A stretch of DNA of 64,000 bases from Candidatus Beckwithbacteria bacterium GW2011_GWC1_49_16 (GCA_001029675.1 CP011210.1:128193-192192), one strand, 5' to 3'; positions 2,650-59,950 are shown, counted from the stretch's first letter. The notes: generated from the letters alone by a model not told the origin. A program made the numbers and translations.

Positions 2650-3723
2650 ATGTATCAGCCAAAATTTACCATTAGCAACGAAATTTTAAAATATATCGGG
2701 GAGATTGGCGGAGCCAAAGAGGTAATTGATTATGCAGTGATGGTGCCGGCGTGGGAGGCGAAATTTAAAGAGGAGGCGATGGTGCGGACGGTCCATTTTG
2801 GCACCAAGATTGAAGGGAACGAACTGAATTTTTCTCAAACAGAGAGGGTAATGAAAGGTGAAGAGGTCATCGCCCGGGAAAGAGACATTCAGGAAGTTTT
2901 AAACTATAGAAACGTGATGGAATATATCGACCGATTGGGGGAGAGGTTCGGCGAGAAGGGGCCGGGCGGGTCAGCAGCCAGCTATTCCGAAGGCTGGCTC
3001 CAAAAAATCCACCAGTTGACCACCGAGAAGATTTTAGAGAAAGGTAGAGCCGGGGAGTATCGAACCAGTCGGGTGGTGGTAAAAAACAGCGCCACGGGCG
3101 AGGTGAGTTTCCGGCCGCCTTTGCCGGTGGAAGTCGAGGTGCAACTAGCCGAATTTTTTGAGTGGCTCAACAGCGACGAGGGGAAAAAGCTTCATCCGGT
3201 TTTGCGAGCCGGGATAACCCATTATGAGCTGGTGCGGATTCATCCCTTTGTGGACGGCAATGGCCGGGTGGCCAGAGCTTTTGCTCTTTTAGTTTTGTTT
3301 CGCGAAGGCTATGATGTGAAGCGGTTTTTCTCGATCGAGGAGTATTTTGACAAGAATGCCCCAGCGTATTACCAGGCGCTTCAGGCGGTGTCGCAGGCTC
3401 GCGGGGACTTGACCTTCTGGCTGGAGTTTTTTACCAAAGCTTTGGCGATTGAACTAACTAAAATTAAAGACAGGGTCAGGAGCTTGTCGATTGACTTTAA
3501 GTGGCGGGACAGGTTGGGCCGGCAGATTGCGCTTTCGGCGCGGCAGATTAAACTGATGGAAATGTTGACCGACAAAGACAAGCTTTTTATGAGGGAAGCC
3601 AGAGAGAAGTTTGCCGACGTGTCTGATGATACTATTTTGCGGGACATTAAAGATTTGATGGACAAGGGGATTTTGAAGAAGAAAGGCAGCACCAAGGCAG
3701 CGTATTACATGATGCGAAATTAA
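2650..3723 (+). CDS. Fic family protein with a C-terminal winged-HTH domain
   Basis: Fic motif HPFVDGNGRVARAF. The C-terminal helix-turn-helix region reads ILRDIKDLMDKGILKKKGSTKAAYY. The start was trimmed to Met29 (MYQPKF) to avoid overlap with the upstream gene on the opposite strand. Confidence 0.8.
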   Translation: MYQPKFTISNEILKYIGEIGGAKEVIDYAVMVPAWEAKFKEEAMVRTVHFGTKIEGNELNFSQTERVMKGEEVIARERDIQEVLNYRNVMEYIDRLGERFGEKGPGGSAASYSEGWLQKIHQLTTEKILEKGRAGEYRTSRVVVKNSATGEVSFRPPLPVEVEVQLAEFFEWLNSDEGKKLHPVLRAGITHYELVRIHPFVDGNGRVARAFALLVLFREGYDVKRFFSIEEYFDKNAPAYYQALQAVSQARGDLTFWLEFFTKALAIELTKIKDRVRSLSIDFKWRDRLGRQIALSARQIKLMEMLTDKDKLFMREAREKFADVSDDTILRDIKDLMDKGILKKKGSTKAAYYMMRN

Positions 3724-28979: not shown

Positions 28980-29053
28980 GGGCGCTTAGCTCAGTTGGTT
29001 AGAGCGCAGTCCTGATAAGACTGAGGTCCATGGTTCGAGTCCATGAGCGCCCA
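28980..29053 (+). tRNA. tRNA-Ile (anticodon GAT)
   Basis: Cloverleaf with acceptor GGGCGCT/AGCGCCC, anticodon loop CCTGATAAG, T-arm GGTTCGAGTCC. Confidence 0.9.
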
Positions 29054-29091
29054 CAATTTATTTATTCCGTTTGTTAAGATAAAATGTTGCT

Positions 29092-29970
29092 ATGGGTTCT
29101 CAACCTGGTTTACACGAGGTTCCGGCAAGCGAAGAGCTTTCTAAATATGAGAAAAGTGATGTTGTTGCCAAGGTAATTGACTGTATTGATCGTAAACTGG
29201 ATGAGGGACAGACTTCCACTATTTTGCTAACTGGCGGTCCGGGAGTGGGTAAATCAACGGCTTCTTATGAAGTGCTTGATTACTTAAAACTAGAAAGAGG
29301 CTTAGAGTCAGTGTGGATACAAGCTCCCGACATCGGCAGTGAAAAGACAAGAGATAGAATAATCCATATGGGCAACGACAAAGTCTTATTTATAGATTCA
29401 GTTGATAATTTATTTCCTTCTTCTAAAGACCCCGATGAGGTGGCTGAAACAGTGAAGCTATTAAAAGATTTAGCCCAAAAAGGAGAGGGTCCAATAGTTA
29501 TAGCTAACATCCATGATCCCTATTTAGTTAAAAGAGAGATTAAAACAACCCATCTTCCTTTAAGAGACCAAATACTAGGTGATACAGGCTTGTTTTCTGA
29601 TACAAAACAACATTTTGTCGTTGAAGATCGGTTTGTTAATGAAAAAGCCATGAGCGTGGCGGTAAAAAGACTGATAGGTCAGGCTGATATTCACGCGAGT
29701 TGGGCTACCTTTATTCAGCTTGAACTTGAAAAACACGAAGTTAATAAACATAGCGAAACAACCTTTGCATTGTCTTTACTAAAGAAAGATTCTATGCCAG
29801 GGAGTTTGAAGAAATCTTATGTTTTAGGCAGTGAAGATGAGGTCAGGACTTGGTTTAACGATGCTATTGAAGATGCTAGAAAGGTGGGAGAAGAATTTTA
29901 TCGGGCTTATTATGAGCCAGACAGCGAAAGTGAGGCTTTCAAGGGACTAGTGCGATTTGATGTAAGCTAG
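29092..29970 (+). CDS. P-loop NTPase (AAA-like) encoded inside the 16S-23S spacer
   Basis: Walker A LLTGGPGVGKST and Walker B KVLFIDSVD. The gene is AT-rich. It is flanked by a duplicated tRNA-Ile 3' end. Confidence 0.55.
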   Translation: MGSQPGLHEVPASEELSKYEKSDVVAKVIDCIDRKLDEGQTSTILLTGGPGVGKSTASYEVLDYLKLERGLESVWIQAPDIGSEKTRDRIIHMGNDKVLFIDSVDNLFPSSKDPDEVAETVKLLKDLAQKGEGPIVIANIHDPYLVKREIKTTHLPLRDQILGDTGLFSDTKQHFVVEDRFVNEKAMSVAVKRLIGQADIHASWATFIQLELEKHEVNKHSETTFALSLLKKDSMPGSLKKSYVLGSEDEVRTWFNDAIEDARKVGEEFYRAYYEPDSESEAFKGLVRFDVS

Positions 29971-30212: not shown

Positions 30213-30285
30213 GGGCCCATGGCGCAGTTGGTAGCGCGTCTCGTTTGCAACGAGAAGGTCGTCGGTTCGACCCCGACTGGGTCCA
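30213..30285 (+). tRNA. tRNA-Ala (anticodon TGC)
   Basis: Acceptor stem with the G3:U70 Ala identity pair, anticodon loop TTTGCAA, T-arm GGTTCGACCCC. Confidence 0.9.
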
Positions 30286-30342
30286 CCGCGTAAAGTCCCG
30301 CTAAGCTGGACCACGCGGCAAGCACGCGTAAAGCAGGCAAGC

Positions 30343-30416: not shown

Positions 30417-30929
30417 GTGAAGAGAATACCGATCTTTATAGCCAAATATTTTGGTCTATTTGAATTAAAGCAGTCGGTGGATGCCTTGGATGTATTAGCC
30501 GAAGAAGGACGTGCCAGGCCACGATAGGCGTCGGGGAGCTGCCAAGAAGCTGTGATCCGGCGGTGTCCGAATGGGAAAACCTCCTCATTAGTAATAGTGG
30601 GGGCCCCGACAGCGCAAGCTTGTCGGGGGGGGAACCCGGGGAACTGAAATATCTAAGTACCCGGAGGAAAAGAAATTAAATAAGATGCCGTCAGTAGCGA
30701 CGAGCGAAAGCGGTCTAGTCCAAACTCCGACATTACGTCGGAGGGTTGTAGGGCTCCAATATGGGACTACGAGAGATAGTCGAACAACTCGGAATAGTTG
30801 GCCAAAGAAAGTGAAAGCCTTGTAGATGAAATTTTGAGTAGCTCTAGGAGATTCCTGAGTACCACGAGAGACGGCAAACTCTTGTGGGAAGCCGGGGCGA
30901 CCACGCTCCAAGACTAAATACTAATACAT

Positions 30930-30970
<41 letters not shown>

Positions 30971-32456
30971 GGGTCGATGACCCAGTGAAATAGTACCTGA
31001 AACCGATTGCTAACAAACAGTGGGAGGGCCGACGTAAGTCGAGCCTGACCGCGTGCCTATTGAAGAATGAGCCGGCGAGTCTTTGCTGGTGGCAAGGTTA
31101 AGTCGCTTGAAGCGACGGAGCCATAGTGAAAGCGAGCCTGAATAGGGCGATTAGTTGCCAGCAGAGGACCCGAAGCCGAGCGATCTATTCATGAGCAGGG
31201 TGAACCTCGAGTGATATCGGGGGGAAGCCCGAACCTGTGTATGTTGCAAAATGCTAGGATGACTTGTGAATAGAGGTAATATGCCAAACGAGCTCGGAGA
31301 TAGCTGGTTCTCCCCGAAATATATTTAGGTATAGCCTTTCCTTATTTAGGCGCAGGGGTAAAGCACTGGATGGGCATTAGGGACTTGTCTCTGATGCTCA
31401 ACCAAACTCTGAATACTGCGTTGATAACGGAAGGAGTCAGTTGCTGGGGGCTAAGCTCCAGCCGCAAAAGGGAAACAACCCAGATCTCCAGCTAAGGTCT
31501 CTAAATCACTTGCTTAGTTTGTAAGGAGGTCGTAGTCCTTAGACAGCCAGGAAGTCGGCTTAGAAGCAGCCATCTTTGAAAGAAAGCGTAACAGCTCACT
31601 GGTTGACGGAAGACGGCGCCGAAAATTTATCGAGGATAAAGCAGTGTACCGAAGCTGAGACCCCGACAGCGCAAGCTTGTCGGGGGGTAGGGGAGCGTTC
31701 TAAGGGCAGTGAAGGGCCGATGTAAATCGCGCCTGGAGCGCTTAGAAGTGAGAATGCCGGCATGAGTAGCGGAACTCCGGTGAGAATCCGGAGGGTCGAA
31801 AGTCCGAGGTTTCCTACGCAACGTTCGTCGGCGTAGGGTTAGTCGGGCCTAAGGCAAGCCCCGTGTAGTGCGGGGGTAGTCGATGGACAACAGGTTAATA
31901 TTCCTGTACCGGTGACCAATCGTTATTCCCGACGCAAGTCGGGATAAACAGCTGGGGTGGGACGGAATTTGAGAAGTCGAGCGTCTTATTGATTTGACGT
32001 CTAAAAGGCGAGTCAGTCCCGATGTGAAAATCAGTCGGGACGACGGCGAGTCTTGATGGAGAGTTCTCCTTTGGGAGAGCAATTCGACCGGCTTAAGTTT
32101 CCGAGAAAAGCATCGCAGCGAGAAGGGTCACCGCCCGTACCGCAAACCGACACAGGTGGACAAGTCGAGTAGACTAAGATCAGCGGAAGAACGGTGGTTA
32201 AGGAACTCGGCAAATTAGCTGGGAGTAATTTTGAGAGATTCCCTGTCCGACGTTACGTCGGACCGCAGCGAAAGAGTGCCAAGCGACTGTTTAACAAAAA
32301 CACAGGTCTATGCAAAGGCGCAAGCCTAGGTATATGGGCTGAAACCTGCCCAATGCCGGAAGGTTAATTGAGAGGGTGACGTCCGACTTCGGTCGTGACC
32401 GAGCCTTCGATCGAAGCCCCGGTGAATGGCGGCTTTAACTATAAGAGTCCAAAGGT

Positions 32457-33119
32457 AGAATCGCTGCCTTTGTAAAATTTTGCTATATGCTGGAAACTCC
32501 GAGAATCTTGAACTACTGCCTGTTTATGTGTAATACTACACATAATGGGAAGTAAAAAAGTTACAAGTGCGGACAATCAGCAGGAAAGGCTAAAAACGAT
32601 TGGTTGGATAGTTGGTTTCACAGATGGTGATGGTTGTTTTTGTATTTCGATAAACAAAAACCACAGATTAAAACTTGGTTGGCAAGTGGTTCCTGAGTTT
32701 GTAATAACTCAAGGAGAGAAAAGCCTAGAGAGCTTAAAACTTGTTAAAAAGTTTTTTAAATGTGGAAGAATCTTTATTAATCGAAGACATGACAACCATA
32801 AGGAAGACCTTCATAGATATTGCGTGAGAAGTATAGCTGACTTAGAAGAAAAGATAATTCCTTTCTTTGAGAAAAATCAGTTAAAAACCTACAAAAGAAA
32901 ATCATTTGAGACTTGGAGTAAAGCAGTGAAGTTGATGATAAACAAAAGACTTCATTTAAGTATGAAAGGGATTAGAAAGTTAGCAGAAATGTCAGCGGAG
33001 ATAAACCAACAGAAACGACCAAAGTTTTTAGAATCCTCAGAGACTATACGCAGAAGTCCCGCTAAGCGGGATAAGATATAGTCCGATCTCATAAGCGATT
33101 ATGAGTTAACATTATTAAG
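32457..33119 (+). mobile_element. group I intron in 23S rRNA (helix 69/71 region, E. coli ~1931 site)
   Basis: Exon 1 ends ...AGTCCAAAGGT and exon 2 resumes AGCGAAGTACCTTGTCGGGTAAGTTCCGAC. The insert ends in G. It contains a LAGLIDADG ORF. Confidence 0.65.
32545..33081 (+). CDS. LAGLIDADG homing endonuclease, intron-encoded
   Basis: LAGLIDADG motif GFTDGDGCF. 178 aa, AT-rich, located inside the 23S intron. Confidence 0.85.
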   Translation: MGSKKVTSADNQQERLKTIGWIVGFTDGDGCFCISINKNHRLKLGWQVVPEFVITQGEKSLESLKLVKKFFKCGRIFINRRHDNHKEDLHRYCVRSIADLEEKIIPFFEKNQLKTYKRKSFETWSKAVKLMINKRLHLSMKGIRKLAEMSAEINQQKRPKFLESSETIRRSPAKRDKI

Positions 33120-33236
33120 AGCGAAGTACCTTGTCGGGTAAGTTCCGACGCGCACGAAAGGTGTAACGACTTGGCAACTGTCTTGACCACTGATCCGGTG
33201 AAATTGAAATGGCTGTGAAGATGCGGCCTATTGACT

Positions 33237-33267
<31 letters not shown>

Positions 33268-33908
33268 ATAACTTGACATTGGTTTATTTAAGTTGATCGT
33301 CTAGGATAGGCGGGACCCCGACTTTATGTCGGGGGCCAGTGTAATACCGCTCGTTAACTTGAGTAAATCTAACTTATGATCTCTGGAAACGGGATTAGGG
33401 ACAGTGTCTGGGAGGTAGTTTCGCTGGGGAGGTGGTTTGCTAAAAAGTACCGCAAACGCGCAAAGGTACCCTTAGCGCGGATAGAAATCGCGCTGAAAGT
33501 GTAAAGGCAAAAGGGTGCTTGACTGTGACACTTACAAGTGAAGCAGGAGCGAAAGCTGGCCTTAGTGATCCTCGAATCCGTTGTGGAACGGATCGGGCTT
33601 ATCGGATAAAAGCTACCCCGGGGATAACAGAGTAGTCGCACCCAAGCGTCCACAGCGACGGTGCGGTTCGCTACCTCGATGTCGGCTCAGGGTATCCTGG
33701 GGGTGTAGAAGCTCCCAAGGGTTGGTCTGTTCGCCCATTAAAACCCTACGTGAGCTGGGTTCAGAACGTCGCAAGACAGTTCGGTCTCTATCCGCAGTCA
33801 ACGTTGGATTCTTGAGGGAAGCTGACCTCAGTACGAGAGGACCAGGTTGGGCCAGTCCCTAGTGTGCCGGTTGTCGCATCAGCGGCACTGCCGGGTAGCT
33901 ACACTGGT

Positions 33909-33946
<38 letters not shown>

Positions 33947-34109
33947 TCCCAAGATGAGGAATCCCATTAAGATCCCTGGGAGACTACCAGGTGATAGGCA
34001 GCCGGTGTAAGTGCCGTAAGGCATTTAGCCTAGCTGTACTAATCGATCGATCGAAAATAGACCAATTTATTTTGGCTATAAAGAACGAGTATTCTCTTTA
34101 AAATAACTT

Positions 34110-51956: not shown

Positions 51957-52313
51957 ATGCGTCAGCATAATGTCGCCCGCGGTAAACAAGGTGAAAATTT
52001 GGCGGTGAAGTTTTTACAAGAGAAGGGCTATCGGATTTTGGAAAGAAACTTTCGGACCCGGTTTGGCGAGGTCGATATTGTGGCTAAAGATGGTCAGGCG
52101 TTGGTGTTTGTGGAGGTTAAGACTAAAAGCAGCGATAGTTTTGGTGAGCCCTGGGAGATGGTGGATGAGCGCAAGCTGGAGCAGGTCAAGAAGATGGCCC
52201 AAGTTTATCTACAATCTAAAAACTACAATCAACAATCTATGCGCTTGCGCATCGACGTAGTCGGGGTGTGGCTTGATTCGGGTAAACTTAAGCACTGGCA
52301 GGCGGTTTATTGA
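51957..52313 (+). CDS. yraN: YraN-family (UPF0102) endonuclease
   Basis: GENLAVKFLQEKGYRILERNFRTRFGEVDIVAKDGQALVFVEVKTK. Confidence 0.8.
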   Translation: MRQHNVARGKQGENLAVKFLQEKGYRILERNFRTRFGEVDIVAKDGQALVFVEVKTKSSDSFGEPWEMVDERKLEQVKKMAQVYLQSKNYNQQSMRLRIDVVGVWLDSGKLKHWQAVY

Positions 52314-55300
52314 GGTTCCAGGCGAATAATCCACCAGTTAAACTCCAAATCATAAGGCAAAGATTTATTGATGGCGACTTTAAACCATTCTTTCTCTTTT
52401 TTGGCTAGAACATAAAGGACTTGGTTTTGGGGGTCGCCTATGGGGGTGACGTAAGTTAAGGTGTCGGCGGAGACATGAGGCGTAAAGACGGTGAATTCGG
52501 TTAGACCTGCGGGCAGAGTAGCCTTGCCGGCAGTGGCGTTGGTGGCAATCGAAGACGAAGCGGTTGCCTCCTCGGAGGTGGCTGTAGCAATCACCAAGCC
52601 TTCGGTGGTAACTTCTTTGAAACTAGCCGAGCCGGTGCTGACCAAATTTTGGGTGAGTAATTCCTCAAAGTGACCTTGGTTGGCGGTAACTTTTTCGGCG
52701 ATAAGGTTGCCGGTTACAGTCAGATTGCCGTTTATTACCACGTTGCCGGAGGCGTCCAGGGTCATCAGGCCGGCGAGTAAGTTGATGGCACCCACACCTG
52801 AAGGTTGAAGATAAAGGGTATTATCAAGGGAGGAAATGGAGTTTGAAGTTAAAAGTAGGTTGTCGTTTAGGTTTAAGCTATTGGTAACTTTAAGATCGGT
52901 GATGGTGGCTTGGCCGAGGACTGCCAGGTAGTCGGAGAAGAAACCAAAGCTAGCTTCGACCGAATCCAAGCGCAGGTTAGCCGAAGCCGAGGCTTCGATA
53001 GTTTGTAGATTGTAGATCGTAGTTTGTAAGTTTGGATCTTTGTCGGAGGTGTCTAGGTTTTCTGCAGATAAGGTTTGGTCGCGGTATTTTTGGGCTAGAT
53101 CGGCTATTTTTTCTCTCAAGCCTTCGATTTGGCCGGCTTTGATCTTGCCAGCAATAAGCTCGTCGGTAACCACTCTGTCGGCTACCAGCGTGCCTTGAAC
53201 ATCTAATGCTAATTGACTCCCCGGGGTGGCGCTTGACGACTCCCTGGGGTGGCTTGGCGCGATTACCACCGGGCCTTCAATAGTAATCGCGCCGTTGTCT
53301 GCCAGGGGGGAGATAAAGTCGGTGACCAGTTTGTCGGTTTCGACGGTAGGAGAGATGATTTTATTGGCAAACAGGTTACCTGCCACGTTGGCGGCGCCGT
53401 CGACGGCCAATTCTTTGGCCTCGATAAGGCCCGCTTTTACGTGGGCGATGGTGGCGGAAGCGTAAGCAGTTGCCCGAGTAATTAAATTACCCAGAGTGTC
53501 GGTTAACCGGTAAGAAGTCAGAGTGGCCGAGTCGGTGGCCGGGTCGGCGGCAGTGATGTCTAGCTCACCGGCATCAGTTAAGCGGATGCCCGGGTCGTAC
53601 CAACCGAGGTTAACAAAGACCATGATCCGGTCGCCGCCGTTTAACGGGTCCCAGGGCTCGAGCGCCTTGCCGATGATTTGGCCCGGCTCGGTCGCTTTCA
53701 TGGCTTTGCCGGGTTCGGAAGAGCTAGTTAAAGCGTCGCCGATCATGATAGGGGCAGAGGCGCGGGAGATTTTCACCGGCACCCGGCCGGCCAACGCCAC
53801 AGCCCGCTTGGCCGAGTCAGAGGCGGTGTCGCTAGCGCCCAGAACGAAACCAGGCTCGGTTGAGACGACGCCAAGTAACTGGAGATCATAAGGCTTGTCT
53901 GCTTTATGTAAAACGGCCTCAGTGACAACTTTTTGAGTGCCGTCGGGTTCGGTGATGTCGGTGGTGCCGACTTCGCCGATGACCACCACGTCGGCCGCGC
54001 CGATTGACGGGTCGCCGGAAACATAGTACTCGGCTACGTCAGCGGCCGTGGTATTAACCTTACCTGCAAACAGCGTGCCGTAGCCGTTGTATTCAGAAAG
54101 TAAGGTTCTGCCGGCAGAGGCGGCCCCGCCGTTGCCCGTGTCGGCACCGCCACTTGCTCCTGCTCCGAGGTTGCAGGCTCCAGAACCTCCCCCGGTACCG
54201 TTTTTACCTCCACCCCCGCCCCCACCAGCATCCAAAGCTCCGACGTCCGCACAACTGCCGCCGTTTCCACCTGTGGCGCCTGTAGCTCCACTTCCTGCAG
54301 TAGCTTGGTAAGTGCCCTCGGTGAGATTGCTACTAATAAGCCAAACTGTCCCTCCGGCACCACCACCACCACCTCCTCCTCCTCCTCCACCGCCACCTCC
54401 ACCAGAAGCACGATCACCGGACGCGCCGACTGACCCGTCAGTTCCAGCAGTGGCAGTTGAGGGATTTGAAGGAGTTTCTCCATTAGCTCTAATTGTGCTG
54501 CTGTTAGTGAGAGTGTTTGCAGAAATAACTACAATGCCGCCGCCAATACCGCCGTTTCCTCCATTAGATCCGGCACCGCCAGCGGCGGTGTTAGCGCTAG
54601 CGCTGATTGTGGCACAGGCACTTTCACCACCACCACCACCACCTCCACCACCACCACCTCCTCCACCCATGAAGAGAGTCGAAAGAGTGCTGTTGCCTCT
54701 GGCAGAGTCGGCTGATCCGGCCGTACCCTCAGCCGTCCCACCAGCTCCGTCGGGCCCGGCTCCACTACCACCATCAGCACCAGTGGTTCCGGCAGTTGAG
54801 GCCGCGCCATAAGCTCCGCCTCCGCCGCCTCCGCCCGCTTCTGCACCGCCTCCGCCACCTGCATCACCACTTAGGTATGAGCCATGCTGACCAAGATCAC
54901 CTCCTGCGCCTAATCCTCCACTACTTGAAGGGCCACCTCCAGTTGTACCGTCGCTGCCGTCTGTACCGTCATTACCATTGATCGAGCCGGTGCCGGAGCA
55001 GTTTGCTGCTCCAGTACCTCCGCTGCCACCGCTACCGCCTGTTCCTCCGGCATACCCCAGTTCGTTGCCCTCGACGGTGCCGCTATTTATGAATGTGCCG
55101 TTGGCTTTGATATAGAGGACTCCTCCTACGCCGGTTCCACTGTCCCAGGCGGAAGCAGTAAAAGTGGTCGAGGAGTTGATAGTAACATCGTTGTATTGGG
55201 GAATTCTAACTACTTGGGCTCCTGTTGATTGATAGTCGTTTTGAAGATTGGCAGTAAAGGTGATGATCCCGTTAGTTGAGTCGATGGCGTCTATCTCCAT

Positions 55301-58300
55301 AATGTCGTAGTTACCGGCACCGGTGCCGGTCATTTGGATAACGATTACATGATCGCCCACCGTATAGTTAGGCGATGAATCGCTTACCGTGACTCTGTTG
55401 GTGTAGGATGCGGCAGCAGTGATGTCTATAGCTTCGCAGTCAAAATTTGAGTCACTGTCTGGCCCGTCCGTTGTAGAGCAGTTGAATGGTGTGTTGACTT
55501 GATTGCCGGTGGCGCCGCTGGTGACCACTTCAATGTCGCCGTCACCCCCGTCGCCATAGCGGTCGTTCGTTAGGTCGTTAGTGTCAAACCTTCCCTTAAC
55601 CGTGCCGGAGGAGTTGAGGAAAAAGATCGAGGAGTTGCCGGCAACGCCGGTCGTGGTACCGCCGGCTTGGAGACGGAGAGAATCGGTGGAGTCGCCGATG
55701 ATGTTACCCGTTAAGGTAATATCACCTGAAACATCTAGTTCTTGACCTGGAGTGTTCGTGCCGATACCGACAGAGTTTACGTTATCATCGACATAAAGGG
55801 TGTTACCGTCAAAGGAGATATCGCCGTTGTTGGTGGTGCCGGTGACAATATACATATGCGTTTCGGTGTTGTCTTCGTTGGTAAAGCGGATTTGAGAGCT
55901 AGCCGAGTCGTCGTCGCCGGTAATGACTAAATTATTGGTGATGTTGTTAATGAATGAGTCGGTGCCGTCGTGATAGAAAGCCAGATCTTCTCCCACACCG
56001 ATGGTCAGGCCAGCGGTTGACCCGTCGGTGACAAGTTCTAGTTGGCCGGCATTAGTTAGGGTCATGCGGGTTGTTGCCGAAGCCGAGGCGGTAAAAATGG
56101 GACCAGAGCCTAATTGGTCTACTTGTAAAGTAGCCGCCCCGCCGGAATTGTTTTGAACCATGGTGATGCCGTTTGAAGCAGGGGCGATGGTTAAGTTAGC
56201 AGCATCAGTGGTGCCTAAGGTTAGATCGGTGCCGTCAGAGGAAAAGGTAAAGTAATCACCGGTGTCGTTATCTGGTTGGAGGAAAATGTCCGAGGCAGAG
56301 ATGAAAGTCAGGTTGCCGGTGTTATTGTCGATAAACGAGTCGGTGCCGTCGTGATAAAGGTCCAAGTCGTTGCCGGTGCCCAGATAAAGGTGTTTGCTGT
56401 CTAAAATGTTGATGTTGCCGGCCACAATCAAAGAGGTGCCGGTGGCGGCCGGGTCAAGGTAGTAAGTGTCGTCGGCCAGGTCAGTATAGCGCTGGTAGTA
56501 GGCGTAGCCGTTGGTGTCGAGACGAAACTTGGTCACTCCCGAAGCCGAGGCGGTCAGTAAGTCGCCTGTGCCTAACTGGTCGATGACCACCAAGGCGTCG
56601 CCGCCGGCATTTGATTGGACCAAAAAGTGTTCGTTAGACTCCAAAGCCAGTTTTAATGAGCCGGCGTTTTGCGTCCAGGTGGCAAAGGTGGTGGCAGCGT
56701 CTTTGAAAAAGATGTCGGCGCCGTCGGCGTCAAGGATAATATCGCCGGAACTGTCCAAAGTCATGTCGCCGGTCGAGTTTAAAGTCAGGGTGCCGGTGGG
56801 GGTAATATCCAGGTTGCCGTCAGAGGTAATGCTGTCGCCGTTGACGGCCAAGGTGCCGGCCAGAGTGATGGAGTCGTCAAGATTAATGGTAACGGTGTCG
56901 GTGGCCGAGTCAACCGTGGTGATATTGGTGCCGCCGGCAATGGTTAAAGTGTTTCCCTGGGTGATGGCTTGGCCGCCTCCCGAGTCACCGGCGGCGGTAA
57001 AGAGCGTTCCGGAAACTTGGGCAACGGGAATTGTTCCTGTTGAACTAATCACTTCTGTGCCGTTGACCCTAAGAACCGAATCCCAACCAGATCCTACATT
57101 AATCGCGTATTCGGTAGCGCCTCCGGCCGAAGTCAAAGCGCCGATATTTAAGCCGTAAAGATTGCCTGCCGCCGGGCCGGAGGTGGTGGGGGCGACAATA
57201 TTAAGACCGCTCATGGTACCGCCGGTAACAATGGCGCCGGAAGCAGGCACCAGTACCCGGACGCCGTCGGCGTTGACCGTTCCCGTCGTCTGGGTGATAA
57301 CCGGCAGGGTAACATTTAGTCCCCGCCAATTAATCGTGCCGGCGGCTGTGTCCTGGGTTAAAGCGGCCGCGGCCGAGAGGTTGTAACCGGTGTAAGTAGT
57401 GGTGTTGGCGGCTGACTGGGTAAGAGCCGGGGTTTGGACGTTAGTGCCGGTAACATCCAAATCAGTCGCCCCGGTTAAGTTGCTGTTGAGGTTTAAGGAT
57501 AGACCGGTGATGTCGCCGCCTGATTGGGTGGTAGCGCCGGCAAAATCGGCGTTGATCAGGGTGCCGTTAGTCCATTCGGTTTCCAGAACATAATCGGTGA
57601 AAGTGCCGGTTGTTCCCGGAGTGAAGCTTAGTTGTCCAGAGGAATTTACCTGGAACAGATCGCCGTTGCCGACAGTGAAGAGGGATGCGGGGGTTGAATC
57701 ACCTACACCCACGTTGCCGTTTTCGTCGAGCGTCATTCTGATCCCAGAAGATCCAGCGTTCATGGTGGTGAAGTAGAGTTCTCCCGAGTTTTCACTAGTA
57801 CCTTCAACGAGGGTGTATATGGAAGCAATTGTGTTGTTTGCGCTACCCGCATGGAAACTGATCATGCCGATCCTTTTACCGTCAGCAATGTTGTTGCTAG
57901 TTTTAGAAAACTCAAGATATGAGCCGTTGAGGCTATCCGAGGTGTCCACTAGTGTTATCGCCGGTTCCGAACTTGAGTTGATTCCGGGAGTGGTGGTACG
58001 AAGTCCAAGCTGACCAGCGCCATCGAGGGTCATTTTAACGGCCCCTGCGTCGCCGCTGGCGTTGTCGGTGAAAAAGTCCATTCTGGAGGAAGGTCTGGTA
58101 TTACCGAAATTTCCTTCTGCTAAAACTCTAATGTAGCCTGCTGTATTTGAAGTTAAAGTAGAGTCGTTGGAATAGAAACTTAGCGTTCCGATTACTTCCC
58201 CTGATAAGACTGTTATGTCGTTGCGGCTAAGCGTGAGTGTGGGTCCTCCGGTACTTTCTATCTCCAGGTTGCTTATAGGGTCGGCTGTACCTATGCCAAC

Positions 58301-59950
58301 TCGATCGGTGCTGGCGTCAATAGAAAGAGTATTGGAATCAAAATTCAAGGCATCGGCGGCGGCGTTTAAGGTGACGTCGACGGTTTGGTTAGAGAGGTCA
58401 ATTACGCCCGTGTTAATAGCCAAGTTGCCGGTGGTAGAGCCACCTAGCGTTAAGGTTTGGGCATTGGTGGTGCCCAGGTTGCCCAAGCCGGTCAGAAAAG
58501 CAGCGTTGTTGCCGGAACTGGCGGAGATAGTGGCGGTGGGGGTGCCGGAGTTGACGTTGATGAAGCCGAATTTGGCAGAGGCGGTGGCGGTGTTGCCGAT
58601 CAAAACATCCAGAGTGTCATTTATGGGGGATAAAGCGCCCTCGCTGAGGCGCCAGTAGACAGTGCCGCCGCCGGTATCATCGCTGCCGCAGGTTAAAATG
58701 CCGGAACCATCGGTTTCGAGTGCTGTGCAGGTAATAAAATCGGTTAGGATAATGTCGTCAACGGCGTTTAAGGTAATATCAGAGCCAGCGCCGGTGGTTT
58801 GCAGGGTGAGAGAAGAACCGTCGATGGTGATGGCGTCGCCGCCATCACCTAAAGTGACCGCGCCATCAGCGTCTAAAGCCCCGGCAATATAGGTGGCTCC
58901 GGTCCGGCCAACCGTAAACACCTCTGTTTCTGAGGCGCCGGAGGAGAGGTTTAACAGGTCTCCGGTGGCGGTGTCGTTGCCGACGTAGCCGGAAATTAAG
59001 TGGCCGGAGGTGAGAGAAGCGTTGGTAGCGCGGATAAAGTTAGTCGAGGTGGTAGAGCCGGTGAGCAGCAGTTGGCCGGTGCCGTCAGGGGCGATGGTGA
59101 TGGCGCCGTTGGTGCCGGTGTCGGTGACGATCGATAAGGCTTGGCCTTTGATGGCAAAGGTGCCCGAGGTGGAGTAGACCTGGGGGTTGGCGGCGGCAAT
59201 GACCAGGTCGCCCTCTTGGGTTAAGACCGGGATTTGGTCGGCCGAGGCCGAGGCCGAAGGAGGGAAGCCCCGCAAAGTCTCGGCGTTTAAGGCATAGGCG
59301 ACGGTGGCGATTTGCTGGCGCGGGGTGGCCTCAGGGTCGGTCTCGACGGTGACTCCCAGCCAGAGGTCGGCGTTTTCGGTAAAGACACTGGAGGCGATAG
59401 AGGTTTCAGTGCCCAAAAGGACCGAGAAGATGCCGTCTTGGTCGGGGTCGAGGTAGCGCTGCTCCTCCCAAAGTTTAGCCGAGCCGGAGGCGGTTTCGTC
59501 GTCGTAAATGATAAACCTAAAGTCGGTGGGCACGGTGATGGGGTTGTCGGAAGTGTCGGTCAGCCGGGCCTGAAATGACAGGTAGCGGTTGGGAGTAGTG
59601 GGGCTGGGAGCTTGGGGGTAGGCTTGGCCGAGGAAGACCTCCTGGAAAATTTGTTTGTAGCCAAAGATGCCTAAAGCCACGGCAAACAGGACCAAAAGGG
59701 ATAGGTTGAGGTAGCTGGCGATGCTTAAAGAGTGGTATTTTTGGTAGAGTTTGCCAAAGCTGATACCTTTTGACCTAGTTTGTATGAGTTTTCTAGAGGG
59801 GGGGTGAGGGTAGTGGTGTTTGGCCCAGGCAGAAAAGCGGTTGAGTGAAGAAATTTTGCGTTTAATGGTGGCTGATGGAACCTTTTGGGCCGCCAAATGC
59901 TTTTTATAGCGGGAAATGAGCTTTTTACTGGTAAGAGTAGTCAGGTCCAT
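52307..59950 (-). CDS. giant membrane-anchored surface protein (2,547 aa)
   Basis: A single uninterrupted ORF. The N-terminal 50 aa forms a cytoplasmic SAM-like segment. One TM helix (LSIASYLNLSLLVLFAVALGIFGY). Then a Thr/Gly/Ser-rich repetitive beta-rich ectodomain with three poly-Gly tracts. Confidence 0.8.
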   Translation of the reverse strand: MDLTTLTSKKLISRYKKHLAAQKVPSATIKRKISSLNRFSAWAKHHYPHPPSRKLIQTRSKGISFGKLYQKYHSLSIASYLNLSLLVLFAVALGIFGYKQIFQEVFLGQAYPQAPSPTTPNRYLSFQARLTDTSDNPITVPTDFRFIIYDDETASGSAKLWEEQRYLDPDQDGIFSVLLGTETSIASSVFTENADLWLGVTVETDPEATPRQQIATVAYALNAETLRGFPPSASASADQIPVLTQEGDLVIAAANPQVYSTSGTFAIKGQALSIVTDTGTNGAITIAPDGTGQLLLTGSTTSTNFIRATNASLTSGHLISGYVGNDTATGDLLNLSSGASETEVFTVGRTGATYIAGALDADGAVTLGDGGDAITIDGSSLTLQTTGAGSDITLNAVDDIILTDFITCTALETDGSGILTCGSDDTGGGTVYWRLSEGALSPINDTLDVLIGNTATASAKFGFINVNSGTPTATISASSGNNAAFLTGLGNLGTTNAQTLTLGGSTTGNLAINTGVIDLSNQTVDVTLNAAADALNFDSNTLSIDASTDRVGIGTADPISNLEIESTGGPTLTLSRNDITVLSGEVIGTLSFYSNDSTLTSNTAGYIRVLAEGNFGNTRPSSRMDFFTDNASGDAGAVKMTLDGAGQLGLRTTTPGINSSSEPAITLVDTSDSLNGSYLEFSKTSNNIADGKRIGMISFHAGSANNTIASIYTLVEGTSENSGELYFTTMNAGSSGIRMTLDENGNVGVGDSTPASLFTVGNGDLFQVNSSGQLSFTPGTTGTFTDYVLETEWTNGTLINADFAGATTQSGGDITGLSLNLNSNLTGATDLDVTGTNVQTPALTQSAANTTTYTGYNLSAAAALTQDTAAGTINWRGLNVTLPVITQTTGTVNADGVRVLVPASGAIVTGGTMSGLNIVAPTTSGPAAGNLYGLNIGALTSAGGATEYAINVGSGWDSVLRVNGTEVISSTGTIPVAQVSGTLFTAAGDSGGGQAITQGNTLTIAGGTNITTVDSATDTVTINLDDSITLAGTLAVNGDSITSDGNLDITPTGTLTLNSTGDMTLDSSGDIILDADGADIFFKDAATTFATWTQNAGSLKLALESNEHFLVQSNAGGDALVVIDQLGTGDLLTASASGVTKFRLDTNGYAYYQRYTDLADDTYYLDPAATGTSLIVAGNINILDSKHLYLGTGNDLDLYHDGTDSFIDNNTGNLTFISASDIFLQPDNDTGDYFTFSSDGTDLTLGTTDAANLTIAPASNGITMVQNNSGGAATLQVDQLGSGPIFTASASATTRMTLTNAGQLELVTDGSTAGLTIGVGEDLAFYHDGTDSFINNITNNLVITGDDDSASSQIRFTNEDNTETHMYIVTGTTNNGDISFDGNTLYVDDNVNSVGIGTNTPGQELDVSGDITLTGNIIGDSTDSLRLQAGGTTTGVAGNSSIFFLNSSGTVKGRFDTNDLTNDRYGDGGDGDIEVVTSGATGNQVNTPFNCSTTDGPDSDSNFDCEAIDITAAASYTNRVTVSDSSPNYTVGDHVIVIQMTGTGAGNYDIMEIDAIDSTNGIITFTANLQNDYQSTGAQVVRIPQYNDVTINSSTTFTASAWDSGTGVGGVLYIKANGTFINSGTVEGNELGYAGGTGGSGGSGGTGAANCSGTGSINGNDGTDGSDGTTGGGPSSSGGLGAGGDLGQHGSYLSGDAGGGGGAEAGGGGGGGAYGAASTAGTTGADGGSGAGPDGAGGTAEGTAGSADSARGNSTLSTLFMGGGGGGGGGGGGGGESACATISASANTAAGGAGSNGGNGGIGGGIVVISANTLTNSSTIRANGETPSNPSTATAGTDGSVGASGDRASGGGGGGGGGGGGGGGAGGTVWLISSNLTEGTYQATAGSGATGATGGNGGSCADVGALDAGGGGGGGKNGTGGGSGACNLGAGASGGADTGNGGAASAGRTLLSEYNGYGTLFAGKVNTTAADVAEYYVSGDPSIGAADVVVIGEVGTTDITEPDGTQKVVTEAVLHKADKPYDLQLLGVVSTEPGFVLGASDTASDSAKRAVALAGRVPVKISRASAPIMIGDALTSSSEPGKAMKATEPGQIIGKALEPWDPLNGGDRIMVFVNLGWYDPGIRLTDAGELDITAADPATDSATLTSYRLTDTLGNLITRATAYASATIAHVKAGLIEAKELAVDGAANVAGNLFANKIISPTVETDKLVTDFISPLADNGAITIEGPVVIAPSHPRESSSATPGSQLALDVQGTLVADRVVTDELIAGKIKAGQIEGLREKIADLAQKYRDQTLSAENLDTSDKDPNLQTTIYNLQTIEASASANLRLDSVEASFGFFSDYLAVLGQATITDLKVTNSLNLNDNLLLTSNSISSLDNTLYLQPSGVGAINLLAGLMTLDASGNVVINGNLTVTGNLIAEKVTANQGHFEELLTQNLVSTGSASFKEVTTEGLVIATATSEEATASSSIATNATAGKATLPAGLTEFTVFTPHVSADTLTYVTPIGDPQNQVLYVLAKKEKEWFKVAINKSLPYDLEFNWWIIRLEPQ

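Follow-up and report, generated by a model that had tools for sequence, protein, structure and literature searches.

The 64,000-nucleotide stretch of DNA analyzed here, called the window below, comes from Candidatus Beckwithbacteria bacterium GW2011_GWC1_49_16 (CP011210.1:128193-192192) and carries a 23S rRNA gene that is interrupted by an insert of 663 nucleotides. Positions are those of the window, and the 23S gene, its insert, and all of their parts lie on the plus strand. The 23S gene, the one copy seen in the window, runs from 30454 to 34064 and matches the Rfam model of the bacterial large-subunit (LSU) rRNA from end to end (RF02541, 2396.5 bits, model positions 1-2925). On its 5' side lie an uninterrupted 16S rRNA gene and a spacer with tRNA-Ile and tRNA-Ala. 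The complete bacterial LSU rRNA measures 3611 nucleotides against the 2925 positions of the Rfam model, in keeping with the initial annotation, which had described such introns as making the unspliced gene much longer than the mature rRNA. When the gene was aligned with Escherichia coli rrlH by MAFFT (67% identity over aligned columns), one large insertion was found, at 32457-33119, directly 3' of E. coli position 1931, so that the homologue of U1931 precedes it and that of A1932 follows it. The E. coli numbering was verified by GGTAGCGAAATTCC, which is found at E. coli 1929. The 23S sequence breaks off after ...GAGTCCAAAGGT and resumes 663 nucleotides later with AGCGAAGTACCTTGTCGGGTAAGTTCC, and both the flanks and the alignment bear out the interruption that the initial annotation had placed near position 1931 in domain IV.

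The insert is real, sharply bounded, and optional. Both the insert and the second exon begin with AG, and the borders can therefore slide by up to two bases. Among the slidable borders, however, 32457 and 33119 alone give a U at position -1 together with a terminal G (G33119, as originally read). Borders shifted by +2, which correspond to site 1933, were rejected, as position -1 would be G instead of U and the U·G wobble of the splice site would be lost. Metagenome contigs were then scanned for exact matches to the joined flanks over 36 nucleotides, and one contig, L086, was found to contain them in a 23S gene that has no intron. L086 and the window are 89% identical in 16S and 82-89% identical in 23S. 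Moreover, two BLAST segments of the window 23S abut in L086, omitting precisely the 663 nucleotides, the very stretch that had been delimited beforehand. Thus, the insert is both optional and precisely bounded because the intron-less contig carries the joined flank without it.

The insert has the fold of a group I intron that lacks P2 and has an extended P5. The upstream exon contributes CAAAGGU (32450-32456) to P1, where it pairs with GCCUUUG (32466-32472) and leaves U32456·G32466 as the wobble pair at the 5' splice site. The internal guide sequence (32461-32472) consists of that P1 part and of a P10 part, UCGCU (32461-32465), which forms five consecutive pairs with AGCGA in the 3' exon (33120-33124). 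J1/3, UAAAA, links P1 straight to P3, in which UUUUGC (32478-32483) pairs with GCAGAA (33050-33055) to make a pseudoknot with P7. P4 joins UGCUGG (32488-32493) to UCAGCA (32577-32582). P5 and its extension span 32498-32573, with UCCG (32498-32501) paired to CGGA (32570-32573) and the extension itself at 32502-32569; the terminal hairpin of the extension (32518-32549) contains the start codon of an open reading frame (ORF). The 3' strand of P4 is followed within 32577-32597 by the 5' strands of P6, GGA (32583-32585), and P6a, CUAAAAAC (32590-32597), all inside the ORF codons N-Q-Q-E-R-L-K-T. Their partners, GUUUUUAG of P6a (33024-33031) and UCC of P6 (33034-33036), lie within 33024-33036, which codes for K-F-L-E-S. 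The 5' strand of P7 (33040-33047) comprises G33040, a bulged A33041, and GACUAU (33042-33047) and pairs with AUAGUC (33078-33083) and C33084. P8 is a hairpin, UCCCGC-UAA-GCGGGA (33057-33071). J8/7 and the P7 3' strand, UAAGAUAUAGUCC (33072-33084), match the RF00028 consensus AAGAUAUAGUC, with the J8/7 consensus itself present as UAAGAUAUAGUC, and the ORF stop codon UAG (33079-33081) falls inside. The P9 hairpin, CUCAUAA-GCGA-UUAUGAG (33088-33105), has a GNRA loop, and a 3' tail (33106-33119) ends in the terminal guanosine. G33042-C33083 of P7, beside the bulged A33041, is the homologue of the guanosine-binding pair, and the P7 stretch CAGAGACUAU agrees with the Rfam consensus. By our own alignment, we take CAGAGACUAU to match CACAGACUAA of Tetrahymena and G33042-C33083 to be homologous to Tetrahymena G264-C311.

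The fold was built by hand from the sequence and its homologues, and energy supports it. An unconstrained minimum-free-energy (MFE) fold of the insert recovered P1, P4, P5 with its extension, P6, P6a, P7, P8, and P9, and its energy gave a z of -7.9 versus shuffled sequences. P3 was missing from that fold because it makes a pseudoknot with P7, beyond the fold's scope. Two other pairings were rejected along the way. CGAG/CUUG, a hairpin closed by AAU, had been the first choice for P5 and was replaced by UCCG/CGGA, given the compensatory UCUG/CAGA in homologues. The P3 of Rfam's own alignment (GUUUUUAG...) is mismatched and leaves no P4-P6, and UUUUGC/GCAGAA, which co-varies, was preferred. Both the MFE fold and the covariation support the hand-built fold, which comprises P1 and P3-P10 together with the wobble pair and the terminal G, in agreement with the group I intron that the initial annotation had proposed.

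Covariation among homologous introns argues for the same fold. The core segments of 52 homologous introns at the same site, from which the ORF loop and the P5 extension had been cut out, were aligned by MAFFT without reference to structure, and the pairs of the hand-built fold were then counted. Standard pairs filled 92.7% of 2369 cells, compared with 35-42% after the 3' partners were slid by 1-3 columns, and of the 46 pairs, which make up eight helices, 33 were found to change on both sides. None of 500 shuffles reached the observed value on any of five measures. Changes on both sides affected every pair of P3 (6/6, with 97.4% of cells paired), P6a (8/8, 92.1% paired), P8 (6/6), and P9 (7/7, 93.3% paired, with the GCGA loop conserved), three of the four pairs of P5 (95.7% paired; UCCG/CGGA versus UCUG/CAGA), and three of the six of P7. 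P4 was 99.7% paired and almost invariant, hence uninformative, and P6 was invariant; one homologue that had been excluded from the alignment, L026, has UGCGGG/CCCGCA as its P4. Of 56 homologues, 37 have the same 7-bp P1. The guide sequence tracks the host exon through five variants (CAAAGGU, CUAAGGU, UUAAAGU, CUACGGU, and CUAUGGU), as in the exon/guide combinations CUAAGGU/GCCUUAG, UUAAAGU/GCUUUAA, CUACGGU/GCCGUAG, and CUAUGGU/GCCAUAG. The guanosine site was G-C in 41 of the 52 introns.

We note two variations within the set. The guanosine-site pair of P7 and the last nucleotide of the intron vary together in the 52 introns (alignment columns 82 and 141). G-C sites were accompanied by a terminal G in 34 introns and by A in 7, A-U sites by U in 5 and by G in 1, C-G sites by A in 4, and a G-U site by A in 1. 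Loci that are noncanonical at the site or the terminus include L010, L015, L018, L031, L033, L034, L036, L054, L059, L064, and L070, with others that end in A; the window intron is canonical at both. The noncanonical L1931 copies either are decayed and do not splice or are natural changes of nucleotide specificity. The other variation is a second 5' architecture, in which the first ~130 nucleotides of the intron hold an extra hairpin directly 3' of the splice site. Behind that hairpin, and ahead of the usual guide sequence and P3, comes sequence complementary to the upstream exon (the 3' strand of helix 69), for example GGACUGGGACGG. This architecture occurs in L010, L015, L016, L018, L021, L030-L034, L048, L050, L052, L062, L066, L071, and L074.

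The insert encodes a LAGLIDADG homing endonuclease. The ORF (32545-33081) encodes 178 amino acids, contains the GFTDGDGCF that had been read in it, and has one LAGLIDADG_1 domain with the motif IGWIVGFTDGDGCF. Pfam PF00961 was matched at 83.2 bits (cutoff, 23.1; E, 2.8e-23) over residues 22-128, the whole profile. In the PDB, matches were obtained to both halves of I-LtrI, I-OnuI, I-SmaMI, and I-PanMI, which are two-domain enzymes (E values down to 5e-37), and to the single-domain chain 5gkk (7.6e-26). An AlphaFold model built on 26 homologues had a predicted local distance difference test (pLDDT) score of 82.2 and the order alpha-beta-beta-alpha-beta-beta-alpha, with helices at residues 8-26, 58-71, and 97-110 and strands at 32-38, 46-57, 75-79, and 89-94. 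Foldseek assigned a probability of 1.00 to I-TnaI, I-GpeMI, I-OnuI, and I-LtrI, and the best match was 5gkk, "homing endonuclease I-TnaI" (TM score of 0.84 on the target, 34% identity), which we take from its name to be the Thermotoga neapolitana enzyme. The profile, the structural matches, and the predicted fold nearest I-TnaI all agree with the family that the initial annotation had named. Every invariant column of the 26-sequence alignment is kept, including D27, G28, and G30, and the metal-binding acidic position 29 is D in the window protein and E in most homologues. An identical protein is present in GenBank as AKM78948.1/OGD52041.1, "LAGLIDADG homing endonuclease," and the intron protein and three other proteins of the window are filed there under Candidatus Beckwithbacteria, consistent with the Candidate Phyla Radiation (CPR) origin that had been suggested from the sequence.

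The endonuclease gene and the ribozyme overlap. The ORF starts in the hairpin of the P5 extension, runs through the 3' strands of P5 and P4 and through P6 and P6a, and ends inside the 3' strand of P7, with its body (32598-33023, 426 nucleotides) in the P6a loop. It covers P5', P4', P6, P6a, P7, P3', P8, and part of P7', where the prime denotes the 3' strand, and about 100 nucleotides double as ribozyme core and coding sequence. Codons 9-18 (A-D-N-Q-Q-E-R-L-K-T) coincide with P5', J5/4, P4', P6, and P6a, and codons 160-178 (K-F-L-E-S-S-E-T-I-R-...) with P6a', P6', J6/7, P7, P3', P8, and part of P7'. These overlap codons are exactly the stretches that are invariant outside the catalytic domain in the 26-sequence protein alignment, or nearly so in the case of N-Q-Q-E-R-L-K-T. 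The same overlap of gene and core, the loss of P2, and a complex P5 were reported for L1917 and L1931 introns by Haugen et al. 2007 (PMC1995217).

The intron and its gene belong to a widespread group. A large protein database held 2850 homologues of the protein, and relatives are encoded in at least 579 GTDB species-representative genomes. Of 80 loci fetched for the intron comparison, 58 have the gene in an insert of 662-800 nucleotides between ...AAGGT and AGCGAAATTCC, at the same site. Full-length relatives are 55-83% identical and occur at that site in hundreds of genomes from several phyla; the closest among the DNA loci compared are ~70% identical at the protein level. A BLASTN search of the intron against plasmids gave no match and no sign of a plasmid-borne copy. 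We note that, besides CPR, the same intron and endonuclease occur in bins labeled Acidobacteria, Actinomycetota, Planctomycetota, Bipolaricaulota, Bathyarchaeia, Pacearchaeota, and Nanoarchaeota (loci L012, L017, L022, L024, L028, L029, L042, L055, L065, and L075, among others), a distribution that fits either wide horizontal spread or misbinned rRNA contigs. In L077, an actinobacterial metagenome-assembled genome, a 49% identical endonuclease homologue is encoded by another intron, which is inserted 3' of the base that corresponds to E. coli U1911 in helix 69, and the L1931 site is occupied by an ORF-less intron of 335 nucleotides (2872-3565 and 3598-3932 of L077, respectively). From that arrangement, the same family of endonucleases appears to have moved ectopically.

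Introns of this kind are already known at the site. L1931 introns with single-motif LAGLIDADG genes have been listed from Simkania, three Thermotoga species, two Synechococcus strains, green-algal organelles, and Acanthamoeba mitochondria (PMC1995217, Table 1). Like them, the window intron shares the site, a similar size at 663 nucleotides, one LAGLIDADG motif, the absence of P2, an elaborated P5, and an ORF that reaches from peripheral loops into the core. It differs in its CPR host and in a somewhat longer protein of 178 amino acids. The site is also known as the target of I-CpaI (PMC6019428), and the green-algal organelle introns belong to a lineage that likewise has single-motif LAGLIDADG enzymes (PMC1995217). 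Group I introns of subgroup IB4 have been described at LSU/1931 in several archaeal phyla (Nawrocki et al. 2018, PMC6125680). They share the site, and some are ~680-760 nucleotides long, which suggests an ORF, but their hosts are archaeal. By that published class, IB4 probably applies to the window intron as well.

A close parallel is found within CPR itself. Tsurumaki et al. 2024 (PMC11270868) cataloged LAGLIDADG_1 proteins at 23S position 1931 throughout CPR as "23IS7," with I-KazI as a putative enzyme and I-ShaI as a characterized one that cleaves its site and dimerizes, as found by cross-linking. The window element has the clade, the gene region, the protein family, and the size class (~180 amino acids, single domain) in common with 23IS7, for which group I-like flanks were likewise detected solely once the cmscan thresholds had been relaxed. 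In the target oligonucleotide of I-KazI, the split falls precisely between GGT and AGCG, as it does in the window. I-ShaI has in common with the window protein the peptides NQQER and S-x-ETIR, which are imposed by the RNA. It is only 34% identical to the window protein, however, is given as 42% identical to I-CeuI, and had its substrate designed on a junction eight bases upstream, between AACTGT and TCTAAGG, equivalent to site 1923 (PMC11270868).

We conclude that the element is very probably a member of the L1931 lineage of group I introns, self-splicing and potentially mobile, with a LAGLIDADG gene. Splicing, DNA cleavage, dimerization, and homing are what we infer from the parts. The precursor rRNA would fold into a P3-P9 ribozyme core, and the guide sequence at 32461-32472 would position both exons by way of P1 and P10. 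Free guanosine, bound at G33042-C33083 of P7, would attack 3' of U32456, after which G33119 would occupy the guanosine site and the exons would join as ...AAGGU-AGCGAAG... between helices 69 and 71, such that the ligated junction would read ...CCAAAGGU-AGCGAAGUACC... The 178-amino-acid single-domain protein would act as a homodimer and cut intron-less 23S rDNA at the joined-exon sequence, presumably with 4-nucleotide 3' overhangs, and repair from an intron-bearing copy would insert the intron. The homodimer is suggested because the protein has a single domain and because I-ShaI was cross-linked as a dimer (PMC11270868).

Four observations weigh against that conclusion. RF00028 was the means of verification that accompanied the initial annotation, and a match was indeed found at 32947-33105, with relaxed thresholds (34.1 bits, E = 7.3e-7), but it missed the gathering score of 50 bits, a threshold that serves detection and does not define the structure. 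The match covers J6/7, P7, P3', P8, the J8/7-P7' stretch corresponding to AAGAUAUAGUC, and P9, and a second fragment at 32488-32624 (13.4 bits) corresponds to the P4-P6 part of the model. We attribute the subthreshold score to the 426-nucleotide ORF loop in P6a and the P5 extension, which split the model, rather than to missing structure, because the homologous L1931 intron of L077, which has no ORF, attains 51.2 bits and so reaches the gathering score. That 335-nucleotide intron aligns with the window intron across the whole core, and its P6/P6a helix ends in a short hairpin, CCGC-UUCG-GCGG, in the place of the window's ORF. The locus recurs in many assemblies at 99.9-100% identity, and the intron is present in every inspected assembly of the species; its mobility at present is therefore only putative. 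The joined-exon site has little symmetry. Its best center lies 4 nucleotides downstream of the junction with 6 of 11 positions symmetric, 76% of shuffles do as well, and the site therefore lends no independent support to a homodimer target. Finally, expression of the protein is uncertain, as nothing resembling a Shine-Dalgarno sequence is found ahead of the AUG, which is itself predicted to be part of a stem.

Might the insert be a group I intron by descent that is not spliced and persists in mature 23S rRNA, where it would expand the region between helices 69 and 71? The same site offers a precedent in Simkania negevensis, to judge by a title cited in PMC1995217 (Everett et al. 1999, "An unspliced group I intron in 23S rRNA..."), and part of the homologous introns have no terminal G, such that nonsplicing copies may exist in the lineage. 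The window intron may behave like that of Thermotoga, which splices, or like that of Simkania, which reportedly does not. The window copy nevertheless has all that the two splicing steps require, namely the U·G splice site, a 7-bp P1, a 5-bp P10, a G-C guanosine site with its bulged A, and a terminal G. Helix 69 forms an inter-subunit bridge of the ribosome, and 663 extra nucleotides next to it would be hard to tolerate. Moreover, according to the introduction of PMC11270868, transcripts of CPR rRNA genes lose the insertions that Brown et al. had detected there. We consider retention in the mature rRNA very unlikely. Less credible still, and close to negligible, is an RNase III-type intervening sequence, excised without ligation to leave the 23S rRNA in fragments. 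Intervening sequences of this type are frequent where bacterial genomes are reduced, and CPR 23S genes contain them too, but they have been placed at 23IS2 and 23IS4, while 1931 is a LAGLIDADG/group I site (PMC11270868). They also carry no LAGLIDADG genes that overlap a ribozyme core. Moreover, the end-to-end pairing in the MFE fold of the window insert is one 8-bp helix that stands in for P3, without an extended terminal stem, and a complete group I core with covariation is present instead.

Whether the protein still serves homing is a separate matter, as a change in its role is compatible with a splicing, potentially mobile intron. The intron may splice while the protein has become mainly a maturase for it, or is a decaying remnant. 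The LAGLIDADG protein of the T. neapolitana 23S intron has maturase-like activity (PMC3984707), and I-TnaI is the closest solved structure, although only about one-third identical in sequence. The intron also appears to be fixed in the species, and once an intron is fixed, its homing endonuclease gene is expected either to decay or to gain a new role (PMC1995217). The ORF, however, is full length and keeps the acid of the motif and all of the invariant residues. Full-length relatives at the identities and across the genomes and phyla given above fit recurrent horizontal homing, and I-ShaI, a relative from CPR, is active as an endonuclease (PMC11270868). Such a shift in role seems improbable to us, if appreciably less so than retention of the intron, and we favor an intron that both splices and encodes an enzyme capable of homing.

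Other features of the window lie outside the intron. The 16S-23S spacer holds a 292-amino-acid ORF (29092-29970, plus strand) between tRNA-Ile (28980-29054) and tRNA-Ala (30213-30287), with a P-loop (GGPGVGKST), a Pfam AAA match (4e-07), and weak matches to nSTAND NTPases. The protein is found in ~50 Beckwithbacteria contigs, and a protein gene within an rRNA operon spacer is unusual. Across all 64 kb of the window, no 5S rRNA gene attained the gathering score of Rfam. The 23S gene is followed on its 3' side by a phosphoribosyltransferase-domain gene and an S1-domain gene, and a very long ORF of 2547 amino acids occupies 52307-59950 on the minus strand.

The element is already known in kind, as L1931 introns of this single-motif LAGLIDADG type have been in the literature since 1999, and those of CPR were cataloged in 2024. 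It carries little weight as a discovery, being a textbook pair of selfish intron and endonuclease. The rRNA homing site is a classic one, and the protein was already annotated in the published CPR genome. Its value is in annotation, as it accounts for a 3.6-kb 23S gene and supplies the exact splice borders for the mature rRNA. Standard Rfam thresholds overlook the ORF-bearing introns of the L1931 lineage, since the covariance model is broken up by the ORF. The dual-coding region is a clean example of an arrangement described earlier. NQQERLK is set by P4', P6, and P6a and KFLESSETIR by P6a', P6', J6/7, P7, and P3', and these invariant tails, though dictated by ribozyme helices, could have been co-opted for RNA binding. 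By analogy to the Thermotoga L1931 protein, the endonuclease may perhaps double as a maturase, an idea that we offer tentatively and regard as doubtful. If it did, the splicing of the single 23S gene of this bacterium, whose genome is reduced, and hence all ribosome production, would depend on the intron's own protein.

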